Of a stretch of 64,000 nt of DNA, positions 31,944-40,306 are shown piece by piece. The stretch lies in assembly GCF_001677475.2 (NCBI RefSeq), contig NZ_CP015229.1; one strand, given 5' to 3'. Position numbers and translations under genes: made by a program. Positions within the stretch are counted from its first letter, which is position 1. Each line of letters begins with the position of its first letter. Source of the stretch: Escherichia coli (GTDB lineage: Bacteria > Pseudomonadota > Gammaproteobacteria > Enterobacterales > Enterobacteriaceae). Under the pieces are notes generated by a model, which saw only the letters and a program-made list of their open reading frames with translations, did not search any database and was not told the DNA's origin.

Positions 31944-32203
31944 AGCTCGATATTCCCATCGTAAACATCTGAGTAGACAAGATCGCCGGTGTGATCTGTA
32001 ACCGATACGAGCGCAAGAAAATCAGCTGGACAAGCAAGTGATTTACAGGTCTGATCAGTGAAGCGTATCCGCTTGATGTGCCCCGCCCTATCCTGGTAGG
32101 TTCCCAATGCTTTTCTTAGCAGGGATTCCAGCAAAGCAGGTTCATCCGCAATCAAAGGTGTGAAGCGGGATTTGACGTCTTCGAGTAATTGTCGTGGTGT
32201 CAT
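31944..32203 (-). pseudogene. 5' part of a P1-like gene truncated by the Mu-like insertion
   Basis: ATG 32203 with GAGG RBS; reading frame runs into the Mu end repeats and stops at 31871. Confidence 0.45.
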
Positions 32204-32209
32204 TGAAAC

Positions 32210-32244
32210 CTCGTAGAATCTGGTGTGTTACCCGATTCTACGAG
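32210..32244. promoter_or_regulatory. 11-bp perfect inverted repeat overlapping the RBS of the truncated gene
   Basis: CTCGTAGAATC (32210-32220) and GATTCTACGAG (32234-32244), 13-nt spacer. Confidence 0.35.
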
Positions 32245-32356
32245 TTGTCATTTGTTACCGGTCAGTCTACACATTTCAGATGCTGCGTTAAAAAACCCAA
32301 GTACTTCAAGTAGCACATCGTCATCAACACCCAGCCCCAAGATACGGTGATAAAAT

Positions 32357-33390
32357 TCAAGCCTTAAGAGGCTTTGTGTATGTTCGTGTAATCCATCCAG
32401 TAATAAACTCGTCCCCTGATTTAACCTGCACGAAAAGCCATTGGCGATCTTTTTTATCTAAAACAGCCACTATAGTATTTTTGCCAATGCATTCAATCAC
32501 CTCACTATTTATAGAAGGACTGACGTGTAATCTTACGTTCTCACCAGTTATAAAACGAAAACCATTGAGATCTTCCCAACTAATTTCTTTGTTTTCTTTA
32601 ATTAATTGTTGTTTTGATATTGGTTTATCCTCAAACAGAGATATAAAATATGATTCTGCCTTGTGTATTCCCAGCAAGGTTTTCTCTTTTCCGTAATCAA
32701 TAAAAGCACCAAACACAACTTGAGAAAATATAACCATTAGTAACCATTGCAGTGGATAAGGAAGCTCTTTAAATGAATCAACAAACTTTGAGCTAGGTTT
32801 ATTTAATCCTTTATTTTGAACATTACTTTTGGTGTGTGATGTTTCAGTAGCACCTTCAGCATAAGCCTGCGCAATAGATGAAATCCCCTGCTCTATTATT
32901 TGATGTAATGAAGCATTTCTTGTTCTAGCATAGTGATCTAGTACTTTCTTTATGTCTTGGCTTACATCTGTTTTATAACTTGCACTTTGTTGTAATTCTT
33001 TAAGTATCGCTTGCATGTTATTTAAACCAGCTTGCTTATTAAGCACCTCAAGCTGTTTTCGTAATGGCATAGCTATTTCGGCCTGTTTCCTTAGCATTTG
33101 AATATATCTATTTGCGTCATGAGGGAAAAGAGCCTGAGTCTGTTTCTGTAAAATCGCGATATGTTCACGATACTTGCTGCCTATTCCAGCCAAGTTCGGC
33201 ATACTAGCCAATTGTTTTCGAAGAGAGTTACTAATTACAGCTTGTCTATTCAATCTTGTCATATTTTGAAAAGAATGTTTTTCTATTCCTAATTGTTTTT
33301 GCAAGATCGCTACGTGATCTTTGTATGATGGAATGAGCACTGACTGTTTATACAGTAACTTCAACTCATTAGAATTAGTAATTTTTGTCA
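32357..33390 (-). CDS. membrane protein with internal repeats and SH3-like C-terminal domain (sim-region)
   Basis: AT-rich; repeats HVAILQKQ / EHIAILQKQ, one TM, C-terminal beta-rich domain; start uncertain. Confidence 0.45.
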
Positions 33391-33465
33391 TATTATTCCA
33401 TTTATATAATAGAATATTACGCAACCAATGTTTTATTGATTGCGTTAATCTTTAACACAGAAAGA

Positions 33466-33942
33466 TCATTTGCCTCGTTTAATACATCCATCCATTTTGG
33501 CTTGTTGATACAACTTACTTAGCCCAGAAAGAGGGAATGTAGCAATTTTTTCATTATCAACATAAGCATCAATCATATTAGCATTTGAATCTGCTGCATC
33601 TTGCCAAAAGGCATACCACCAAGAATCTCCAACCATTGATCCAAGATTGCTAAAAGGATATTGCTCACCATCTATAGTTAATACTATTTTATTCTTGTCA
33701 GCATTATACTCTTTTTTATTATTCGACGAACTTAGCAACAAGCCTAAACTACCTGCACTATCTGGTGAACCATACATGAATCCCATATCACATAAAAAAC
33801 TTATCTTATCACCATTATGATTATGGATTGTATATTCTCTCCCCCCTCTCTCTTCAATTACATTCCATTGTAGAGGATCAATTTTTGCAAATGTTCCTGC
33901 TGAAACTAACGATACAAATAATAAAAACCATCTCATATTCAT
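33466..33942 (-). CDS. secreted protein with signal peptide (sim-region)
   Basis: 158 aa; N-terminus MNMRWFLLFVSLVSAGTFA; AT-rich. Confidence 0.55.
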   Translation of the reverse strand: MNMRWFLLFVSLVSAGTFAKIDPLQWNVIEERGGREYTIHNHNGDKISFLCDMGFMYGSPDSAGSLGLLLSSSNNKKEYNADKNKIVLTIDGEQYPFSNLGSMVGDSWWYAFWQDAADSNANMIDAYVDNEKIATFPLSGLSKLYQQAKMDGCIKRGK

Positions 33943-33964
33943 TCTTTTCGCTTCTTATCTGTAA

Positions 33965-38082: not shown

Positions 38083-38787
38083 ATGTTGAACCGAAGAACA
38101 TTTAATGTATTCTGCGATGAATCCTGTCACCTACTAAATGATCATAATAAAGTCATGGTATTGGGTGCGCTTTGGTGTCCAGGCACTATCACAAAAAAAA
38201 TTGCTAGAGACATCAAGGAATTAAAATTAAAACACAATCTAAAACCTGATTTCGAAATCAAGTGGACTAAAGTATCTGCGTCCAAAGTTGAATTTTACTT
38301 AGATGTCGTAGATTACTTCTTCAGCAACCCAGCATTGCGCTTTAGAGGTGTTGTTGTTCCTGATAAAGAGCAACTGGACCATGCTCGATTCCATCAAGAT
38401 CATAATACTTTCTATTATAAGATGTTTTTTTATGTCTTAAAAAACATAATAGAAAGTAACAACACATACAATATCTACCTAGATATAAAAGATACTTTAG
38501 GTATTGAAAAAATTGAGAAATTAAGAGGGGTTCTTCACAATGATCGCTATGATTACAATCATGAGTCGATAAACAGAATTCAACATATACGATCTCATGA
38601 AGTGCAACAATTGCAGCTAACGGATCTTTTCATTGGTGCGTTAGGCTACGTTCATCGAGGAATGAATAGCAACGCGGGAAAAATCCAAGTCATAAACAGG
38701 ATAAAATCACATACAAACAGGGAGTTACTAAAAAGCACTCTTCCAACAGAAAGTAAATTTAATATTTTCGTGTGGGAGGCTCGCTGA
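38083..38787 (+). CDS. DUF3800-like protein with N-terminal DES motif (rlfA position)
   Basis: 234 aa; GGAG RBS; MLNRRTFNVFCDESCHLLND; strongly AT-rich. Confidence 0.65.
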   Translation: MLNRRTFNVFCDESCHLLNDHNKVMVLGALWCPGTITKKIARDIKELKLKHNLKPDFEIKWTKVSASKVEFYLDVVDYFFSNPALRFRGVVVPDKEQLDHARFHQDHNTFYYKMFFYVLKNIIESNNTYNIYLDIKDTLGIEKIEKLRGVLHNDRYDYNHESINRIQHIRSHEVQQLQLTDLFIGALGYVHRGMNSNAGKIQVINRIKSHTNRELLKSTLPTESKFNIFVWEAR

Positions 38788-39251
38788 TGCTTCAAATGCC
38801 AGATTTATTGTACTTCAATGGAAGTTGGCAAGAGTATATAGACGATGTATATGATGTTGTCAGAGAAGATATTTTAATCTCTAATATAACGTTTAAGGGT
38901 CTCCCTGTTCGATTACGTTATTCACCGGAATATGATGGGAAAGAGTTCGGATTTTGGCATTTAGTATCAGAGGGAAAAATAGAAGAAGAACGTATACCCG
39001 ATCTTGAACGGTGCAAACGAATTCGCTGGATCGCGCATATGATAAGGAATTATAACCATTGCGATATATCATGTTGGTCTGAAAGACGAGGACCAACTGA
39101 AGAGTGGGTAATCTGGAATGAGTATGAAAACTACGTTGTTGTGCTATCCGCACGTAGAGACTATTGGCTTCTCAAAACAGCCTATGTTGTAACCTATGAC
39201 AGTAAAATCAGAACACTCAAACAAAGCAGAAAAAGAGCACTTGGGACATAA
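38787..39251 (+). CDS. partner protein of the DUF3800-like gene (rlfB position)
   Basis: 154 aa; ATG overlaps upstream stop (TGATG); GGGAGG RBS. Confidence 0.6.
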   Translation: MLQMPDLLYFNGSWQEYIDDVYDVVREDILISNITFKGLPVRLRYSPEYDGKEFGFWHLVSEGKIEEERIPDLERCKRIRWIAHMIRNYNHCDISCWSERRGPTEEWVIWNEYENYVVVLSARRDYWLLKTAYVVTYDSKIRTLKQSRKRALGT

Positions 39252-39257
39252 AAAGCT

Positions 39258-39289
39258 GAACCCGACACATATTACTATGTATCGGGTTC
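39258..39289. terminator. stem-loop between convergent genes
   Basis: GAACCCGA...TCGGGTTC 8-bp stem, 16-nt loop, no clear T-run. Confidence 0.35.
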
Positions 39290-39416
39290 GATCGCTCTTT
39301 CTACACATGGTAGATGAGTAAGGCAAATCTAACCGATCTACTTTAGCTTTTCAATAGCTAGCTATAACTTTCCGCACATATTCTTCTGATAATTACGGGA
39401 GAGCGGTTGGGTTTTC

Positions 39417-39713
39417 TCATGCTTTTCTGCGCAGAGAAGCACACTTATTCAGCAATAATAAATGCAATTCTTTGTTATCACTAAGTATTTCTACACACCA
39501 ATATCGTAACGTGTTCACTTCAAGTGTAGCCAGCACCTTATGTCGAAAAGCCCCCTCCCCTACACATAACGATGCCTGACATTCTGCTAAGGCACATAAC
39601 CATGTATTGGCATCATAGAGAATCCAATAATGCTCATCTGAAATAGTTATGCATCCAATTATTTCGAATCTTCTTTCTATCGTCTCAGGAGAGTATGAAA
39701 AATCAATTTCCAT
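39417..39713 (-). CDS. hypothetical small protein
   Basis: 98 aa ORF convergent with the AT-rich module. Confidence 0.45.
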   Translation of the reverse strand: MEIDFSYSPETIERRFEIIGCITISDEHYWILYDANTWLCALAECQASLCVGEGAFRHKVLATLEVNTLRYWCVEILSDNKELHLLLLNKCASLRRKA

Positions 39714-39796
39714 AACATGCTCAAAATCTATCTATACCGGCATAATTTAAGCACAAAAAAGCTCCCGTAGGAGCTTTAAAATACAAGGGATGACTT

Positions 39797-40306
39797 TTAA
39801 TCCCACTCAATCCAGTTGTAGACGATACGAAGTGACGGGCGCACAGCAGCATTCACATCTTCGGTACTAAAGTCGATTGCATCACTGTAGATTTTGCAGT
39901 CCAACATTTCAATTGTTGTAGCAGCTTTTGTCACGGCGTTAACCCCGGAAGATTTGGATTCAGGGGTCGCAGCCATCGTGATATCAACATAGTCCTTCGC
40001 CGCAATGCGATCTTTAATGAACTGAAGAATATCGCCTTCGATAGTCTCCACGCACTGGACCTGGATTTCCCCGGAGTTACGGATTGGACCGTGCTGGTTG
40101 AACTTCACACCATTCGGGCCATAGTCCTCCACATCCTCGCGGGTCATTTCAGGGATTTGCGACGTGCGAACCAGTACGCTGATATCTTCATGGCCTGCAA
40201 AAGTGAGCTGGAATTCAGAAGATACCAGTCGTTCGCCTTTGGCCGCGTTGGCAGTATAGCGGCCCTTAATAAATTTACGGTTTCCCTTAGTGTTATTGTG
40301 CCCCAT
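39797..40306 (-). CDS. virion structural protein, tail-tube candidate
   Basis: 169 aa; same operon and strand as sheath. Confidence 0.45.
   Translation of the reverse strand: MGHNNTKGNRKFIKGRYTANAAKGERLVSSEFQLTFAGHEDISVLVRTSQIPEMTREDVEDYGPNGVKFNQHGPIRNSGEIQVQCVETIEGDILQFIKDRIAAKDYVDITMAATPESKSSGVNAVTKAATTIEMLDCKIYSDAIDFSTEDVNAAVRPSLRIVYNWIEWD

Follow-up and report, generated by a model that had tools for sequence, protein, structure and literature searches.

The 64,000-nucleotide stretch of Escherichia coli DNA analyzed here (contig NZ_CP015229.1; hereafter the window) contains two mobile elements that meet at positions 31919/31920. To the left lies a Mu-like transposable prophage (1 to 31919, + strand), recognized by its guanine-plus-cytosine (GC) content and by homology, with its right end at 31919. 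Phage P1 and hundreds of P1-like plasmids share 96 to 98% identity with the sequence from 31920 to the end of the window. Two patches in this P1-like part are strongly AT-rich, and they occupy the positions at which P1 carries its simC-simB-simA and rlfA-rlfB-pmgF genes, here called the sim slot and the rlf slot. Patch A, in the sim slot, is the part up to about 34500 of a segment without DNA homology to P1 (32257 to 34839), and patch B, in the rlf slot, spans 37929 to 39754 (1,826 bp, 37.2% GC). The P1 backbone between the patches (34840 to 37928, + strand; 97.5% identical to P1, GC 47.7%) carries icd, ant1, kilA, and repL. Beyond patch B it runs from 39755 to 64000 (GC 48.8%) with bplB, pmgG, 21, 22, 23, the par/rep region and beyond; P1 genomes cover 85 to 96% of this last segment at ∼98% identity, and it served as the compositional reference. 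A first-pass annotation of the window had described three compositional blocks, namely a GC-rich Mu-like part, a P1-like backbone of intermediate GC content, and two AT-rich patches that were thought to be separately acquired accessory cargo.

GC content was measured with a 1-kb sliding profile and by direct counts over the window, and the backbone null consisted of 470 to 490 sliding windows of 1.7 to 2.2 kb from the P1-like sequence outside the patches, which is collinear with P1 at ∼98% identity. All three levels of that description were recovered: 55.1% in the Mu-like part by direct count, 48.8% in the P1-like backbone without the patches (standard deviation, 2.0 to 2.1%, in the sliding windows), and 34.2% and 37.0% in patches A and B when these are taken, as originally drawn by eye, as 32300 to 34500 and 38050 to 39750. 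Those boundaries proved good to within ∼100 bp. Patch A falls ∼7.3 and patch B ∼5.6 standard deviations under the backbone, and both are far lower than the lowest backbone window (43.5 to 44.6%), which excludes patch GC values within the normal variation of the backbone. Codon usage gave the same picture. GC at third codon positions (GC3) was 0.23 to 0.27 in patch A genes and 0.31 to 0.34 in patch B genes, against 0.49 ± 0.05 (minimum, 0.41) for the backbone (15 genes) and 0.61 ± 0.08 for the Mu-like part (26 genes). The deficit is thus largest at synonymous positions, with GC at first and second codon positions (GC1 and GC2) also somewhat lowered. Codon-usage divergence from the backbone was 0.096 for patch A and 0.076 for patch B, and both values exceed every draw from 300 random backbone gene sets (0.025 ± 0.008; maximum, 0.045).

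The notion of three blocks holds for the three levels but simplifies the Mu-like part, which is itself mosaic. Its early region has 48.9% GC (1 to 5000), the late genes have 57.4% (5001 to 26500), and the remainder has 51.3% (26501 to 31920), with 47 to 53% in the tail-fiber and com-mom regions. Local dips were seen at ∼20 to 21 kb (50.5%) and at 26.5 to 28 kb (48 to 50%, tail-fiber area). The P1 backbone also has a moderate dip, to 43.5 to 45% at 48500 to 52000, downstream of the structural genes in what is probably the par/rep area; this is the lowest backbone value, yet it is well above both patches.

The segment that contains patch A was delimited as a BLAST gap, with 2,583 bp (36.5% GC) in the window versus 1,867 bp (36.2% GC) in P1, where the simC-simB-simA genes and the c4 region that it replaces are likewise AT-rich. 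P1 homology continues to 32256 on one side and resumes at 34840 on the other, and the segment lies in the sim position, between pmgC with its late promoter and c4/icd. Three genes, all on the − strand, make up the cassette. The first (32357 to 33391; GC3, 0.27) encodes a protein of 344 amino acids, here called the SH3 protein, in which hydropathy and Pfam point to a helical, repeat-rich N-terminal part, a hydrophobic helix at residues 213 to 234, and a C-terminal bacterial SH3 domain. The match to Pfam SH3_3 (E = 1e−5, 26 bits) is just below the cutoff of 27. An AlphaFold2 model from a 31-sequence alignment had a mean predicted local distance difference test score of 43.6, too poor for a fold search, and the secondary-structure layout alone was used. 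The second gene (33466 to 33942; GC3, 0.23) encodes p158, a protein of 158 amino acids with a signal-peptide-like N terminus, for which a homolog search returned only two clusters. The third (33965 to 34315; GC3, 0.24) encodes p116, a 116-amino-acid integral membrane protein, by hydropathy, with three to four hydrophobic helices. The corresponding PHROG families (phrog_7086, phrog_3429, and phrog_15014) are all of unknown function.

The first-pass annotation had called these genes sim-like, and that part of it did not stand. BLASTP comparison of the trio with SimC and SimB gave E values of at least 2.4 or no alignment, and the Sim proteins belong to other PHROG families (14355 and 14329). By sequence, the trio is a nonhomologous replacement in the sim position and is not Sim. 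What it shares with SimA, SimB, and SimC of P1 is the locus, the orientation, and the predicted kind of product, that is, putative envelope proteins with a signal peptide or membrane helices; what sets it apart, besides the missing sequence similarity and the different PHROGs, is a predicted cytoplasmic helical repeat region joined to a transmembrane helix and an SH3 domain. The envelope features (the N terminus of p158, the one helix of the SH3 protein, and the three to four helices of p116) were assigned from hydropathy and inspection, and by hydropathy all occupants seen in the sim slot are signal-peptide or membrane proteins. No cargo protein of either slot matched an NCBIfam model, and PADLOC returned no match for the patch A proteins, SimC, SimB, or two alternative cargo proteins from related plasmids, a DUF4760 membrane protein and a 198-amino-acid protein.

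Patch A is itself a mosaic. A breakpoint at 33471/2 sets the SH3 gene apart from those for p158 and p116; in other plasmids, the latter two accompany the DUF4760 membrane protein gene (32.9% GC) in place of the SH3 gene, and still others carry diverged SH3 genes with other partners. Altogether, three different cargoes were seen at the sim site, with 33 to 36% GC. Terminator-like hairpins follow p158 (33419 to 33445) and the SH3 gene (32359 to 32374) on the − strand. The first of these adjoins the mosaic breakpoint, which suggests that the SH3 gene can be exchanged on its own. The SH3 family ranges from 40 to 100% identity, making it far more divergent than the backbone, and its homologs form 48 clusters, all from Enterobacteriaceae and mostly on contigs of ∼90 to 99 kb. 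Distant homologs on Citrobacter and Salmonella contigs of ∼84 to 92 kb (40 to 43% identity) are longer, at 449 to 481 amino acids; they adjoin HNH or Ead-like genes near a gene for a 2,262-amino-acid helicase/methylase-like protein and do not lie between pmgC and c4.

Patch B is the P1 allele itself, with 97.5% identity over 34840 to 41000, all three genes, and synteny between repL and bplB. The DUF3800-like module expected here is indeed present as rlfA-rlfB, together with pmgF. The left breakpoint of the patch falls inside the C1 operator Orlf (ATTGCTCTAATTAGAAC, 37918 to 37934, + strand; located from the P1 annotation and alignment): P1 and two plasmids lacking rlfAB all retain ATTGCTCTAAT and then diverge. 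The right breakpoint is at a hairpin that resembles a terminator, downstream of bplB. In relatives, the patch gives way to 693 bp (46.6% GC) with a small open reading frame (ORF) and hokD or to 1,190 bp (45.0% GC) with a small ORF and an ORF for the 198-amino-acid protein.

The rlfA gene (38083 to 38787, + strand) encodes a DUF3800 protein, a putative RNase H-fold enzyme, that scores 54.2 bits against Pfam DUF3800 (PF12686; cutoff, 21). Its motifs D12-E13 and Q178-x-x-D181 are invariant in 35 homologs, and homologs fall into more than 5,400 clusters across phyla. The adjacent, co-oriented rlfB (38787 to 39251, + strand), whose start overlaps the rlfA stop at 38787, encodes a partner protein with a weak RelE/colicin-D-like predicted fold and homologs in 937 clusters at 50% identity. 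The two proteins match the A and B models of the PADLOC entry PDC-M04 (PDC-M04A, E = 1e−95; PDC-M04B, E = 5e−52). Foldseek comparison of RlfB with PDB gave nothing significant and, with BFVD, one uncharacterized homolog; sequence searches of solved structures with RlfA and with RlfA and RlfB profiles likewise gave nothing significant. The third gene of the patch, pmgF (39417 to 39713, − strand; phrog_7349; GC3, 0.31), identified from the P1 annotation, is a small nonessential P1 gene.

To place the two slots among relatives, we used the 675 PLSDB records that carry the adjacent backbone. The complete trio of patch A (SH3 protein, p158, and p116) was present in 26 records (∼4%), and 137 had simCBA of P1 at the same site. 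At the rlf slot, rlfA-rlfB-pmgF was found in 98 of the 675 (∼15%), the small ORF with hokD in 255, and the cargo with the 198-amino-acid ORF in 125. Homology breakpoints with relatives match the steps in GC content at both sites (32257 to 34839 and 37929 to 39754), and copies of the patches among plasmids are 95 to 100% identical. These data show that each slot holds unrelated cassettes depending on the P1-like plasmid, with conserved backbone on either side, and they agree with the earlier suggestion that the patches are separately acquired cargo. The 10-kb region with the patch combination of this window is at least 80% covered in only three records. From the presence/absence counts and this rarity, it follows that the content of either slot assorts independently, both of the other slot and of the backbone.

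AT-rich cargo slots at sim and rlf are already documented for P1-like elements, and our finding restates a known property in that respect. Low-G+C variable hot spots at res-mod, sim, and rlf were described by Venturini et al. (2019, PMC6906374), and eight highly variable regions, including simC-simB-simA and rlfA-rlfB-pmgF, were tied to low G+C content in a later study (Microbiol Spectr 2022, PMC9603915). Both papers cite the P1 genome paper, whose statements are used here as relayed by such citing papers. The patches agree with low-G+C regions 4 (simC-simB-simA) and 5 (rlfA-rlfB-pmgF) of that scheme in position, low GC content, and replacement pattern; the difference is that the sim position here holds a nonhomologous trio and a different c4 allele, a rare combination. 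A CRISPR interference map of P1 scored simCBA, rlfA, rlfB, and pmgF as nonessential and pmgC as essential (PMC10695390), showing that P1 does not need its genes at either slot for lytic growth.

Outside P1, the rlfA-rlfB pair stays adjacent in four unrelated contexts. It lies between hsdS and hsdR of a type I restriction-modification operon in Methylomonas, between a reverse transcriptase gene and hsdR of another type I operon on a Bacteroidota-like Joint Genome Institute metagenome contig (L009:5470-14617), and in accessory positions of lambdoid prophages of Serratia and Enterobacter. In three of the four (Methylomonas, Serratia, and Enterobacter), the pair is 8 to 9 GC points below its surroundings. 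On the metagenome contig, the pair is two genes from a Piwi-domain (prokaryotic Argonaute [pAgo]) gene in a dense defense island, a neighborhood in which a link to DUF3800-type retrons is possible. In published work, DUF3800 adopts an RNase H-type fold and appears as an accessory domain in type VII retrons and in a Cas12a2 sub-branch (PMC7736814; PMC10910872), and its N-terminal DE and C-terminal QxxD motifs have been described (PMC7736814). An Rfam scan here found no DUF3800-associated RNA motif.

The likeness of rlfA-rlfB to PDC-M04, a two-gene entry in which A is a DUF3800 protein, comprises the strong model matches, the adjacency, and the retained DE and QxxD motifs, as well as the occurrence of the pair within restriction-modification operons and beside a reverse transcriptase and pAgo. 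The two differ in standing, however: the P1 genes are named for a replication-linked function, and PDC-M04 is a candidate defense pair only. Our literature search found no paper on PDC-M04 and no published defense phenotype for the rlfA-rlfB pair. The pair may form a self-contained module of an RNase H-fold DUF3800 enzyme and a RelE/colicin-D-like partner, and, judging from its contexts, it most likely serves anti-phage defense or an addiction-type function rather than P1 replication.

The assignment of the GC-rich block to a Mu-like prophage was upheld. The element has Mu-type early genes (A/B, gam) and com/mom, arranged as in Mu. Its early genes are 82 to 83% identical to those of Mu, SfMu, and D108, and the com-mom region at its right end (31013 to 31818, + strand) is 89.7% identical to that of SfMu and 89.5% to that of Mu. 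Matches to the early genes begin at ∼3000 of Mu/SfMu/D108, which places the start of the window ∼3 kb inside the element. Its closest relatives are not Mu, SfMu, or D108 but chromosomal E. coli prophages, which are 93 to 97% identical to the whole element and whose homology ends at window positions 31919 to 31921. The late region (57.4% GC) had no close match among deposited phages, and in this, and in its terminal repeats, the element differs from Mu, SfMu, and D108; what it has in common with them, beyond the early genes and com/mom, is a precise end inside a target gene. The element terminates in GCGCGCTTTA, also given as TATCTTGAATAATTTTGCGCGCTTTA, a terminal sequence unlike the Mu right end.

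At the junction, 31919/31920, GCGCGCTTTA is followed directly by TATACCGCTCG, and the P1 sequence adjoining the Mu-like end is TATAC. P1 homology begins at P1 coordinate 46293, within pmgC (46010 to 46576). The 5′ part of pmgC, ∼94 codons, remains at 31920 to 32203 (− strand), identified by P1 homology, the junction alignment, and its ORF, which continues into the Mu end as far as 31871. The Mu-like prophage interrupts pmgC, so that a transposable phage is nested in an essential gene of a phage-plasmid. By the same insertion, the downstream genes tub-pmgB-sit are disconnected from the late promoter LPsit. Because pmgC, scored as essential, is interrupted and tub-pmgB-sit is cut off from its late promoter, the P1-like element here probably cannot produce virions and exists solely as a plasmid. 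Neither PLSDB nor 5,426 complete E. coli genomes contained a record joining this Mu-like prophage to P1 sequence, and a literature search on Mu-like prophages nested in P1-like plasmids found no match.

Two further features of the P1-like part were recorded. The c4/immI control region (34500 to 34839) has no megablast homology to P1 before 34840 and, as far as the alignment goes, is a different allele from that of P1. A C1-operator-like site lies at 34462 to 34478, and the C4 antisense RNA of the immI region was detected at 34671 to 34758 (+ strand; Rfam RF01695, 76.7 bits against a gathering threshold of 45). Since P1 homology resumes only at 34840 though the C4 RNA is still detected, a different immI specificity is suggested, like that which distinguishes P1 from P7. 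Immediately upstream of the C4 RNA, in the part of the immunity region without P1 DNA homology, is a match to the Hfq-binding isrK-like small RNA (34548 to 34626, + strand; Rfam RF01394, 58.9 bits against a gathering threshold of 50, E = 7e−11). In the backbone, the antirepressor gene ant1 has an indel polymorphism at 35615 to 35732, with 118 bp here versus 484 bp in close relatives, and Ant1 is 347 rather than 469 amino acids long.

Low GC content might simply follow from what the patches encode or from a local role, such as the composition of membrane and secreted proteins, promoters, or regulatory DNA, rather than from a foreign origin. Patch A does encode putative envelope proteins and abuts a divergent control region of 30% GC (34200 to 34500), and the lowered GC1 and GC2 values would fit as well. 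However, the greatest drop is at synonymous third positions (0.23 to 0.34 versus 0.49), the products of patch B are soluble, and most relatives lack the patches, with breakpoints at the GC steps. Promoter-like sites were no more frequent than in shuffled sequences (7 versus 10.3 expected and 3 versus 6.8), and from these scans, which showed no enrichment, we draw no claim about expression. We consider an origin of the low GC in content or local role very improbable. A decay of old P1 genes toward AT under relaxed selection, with no separate acquisition, fares only marginally better and is still improbable. Mutation in bacteria is generally AT-biased, and the nonessential status of simCBA and rlfA-rlfB-pmgF in P1 would permit such drift. 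Yet the ORFs are intact, the catalytic-type residues of RlfA are invariant across homologs at 52 to 88% identity, and the near-identity of the plasmid copies leaves no ongoing decay visible. Moreover, in Methylomonas, Serratia, and Enterobacter also, rlfAB is richer in AT than its context, and the same sites hold nonhomologous cassettes.

The junction of the two blocks raises a separate concern, that the assembly fused a Mu-like contig with a P1-like contig and that no insertion took place. The failure to find the same join in PLSDB or in the complete E. coli genomes, and the position of the left junction outside the window, are what this would lead one to expect. Mu-type phages insert almost at random, though. 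The join is also precise to the base, falls where the chromosomal prophage copies end (31919 to 31921), and lies within a continuous P1 gene, as expected of Mu-type transposition. A chimeric assembly is, in our estimation, highly unlikely.

We conclude that the window very probably records the joining of a P1-type phage-plasmid and a Mu-like prophage and that its AT-rich patches are two known exchangeable cargo slots of the phage-plasmid. The Mu-like prophage (55 to 58% GC) would have transposed into pmgC of the P1-type element (∼49% GC). The sim slot has the late promoter of the pmgC operon on one side and the c4/icd immunity region on the other; the rlf slot is bounded by repL, at the C1 operator Orlf, and by bplB. 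During co-residence or coinfection, homologous recombination in the conserved flanks may swap the cargo at both. The low GC content is presumably not a product of local mutation but stems from a pool of AT-rich accessory genes that are shuffled horizontally. The sim-slot products could be envelope proteins that act on incoming phage in superinfection exclusion, with the trio substituting for SimABC. Several points weigh against this account. The recombination mechanism is deduced from breakpoints and was not observed, and the left end of the Mu-like element is outside the window, where the 5-bp target-site duplication that would prove transposition is not visible. The functions of the trio and of rlfAB are our inference, and the PDC entries of PADLOC are candidates only. 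Finally, the alternative cargoes of the rlf slot are not AT-rich (45 to 47% GC), and the low GC therefore belongs to particular cargoes and not to the slot.

A broader proposal is more speculative, and we advance it tentatively, as something that may well turn out otherwise: that rlfA-rlfB of P1 is a widespread candidate two-gene anti-phage or addiction module, pairing DUF3800 with a RelE/colicin-D-like RNase, and that the sim slot is a general docking site for interchangeable envelope exclusion cassettes, with the trio representing a new type.

As a compositional observation, the present finding adds little to the published low-GC variable hot spots at sim and rlf. It does correct the annotation of the sim position, which holds an unrelated trio of predicted envelope proteins and not Sim, and it gathers contextual evidence for rlfAB as a mobile, defense-island-associated pair rather than a replication function, a proposition that is easily testable in the standard laboratory phage P1. 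The window also provides a natural example of a phage-plasmid with a transposable phage inside one of its essential genes, which probably leaves the P1 element with a plasmid-only life.

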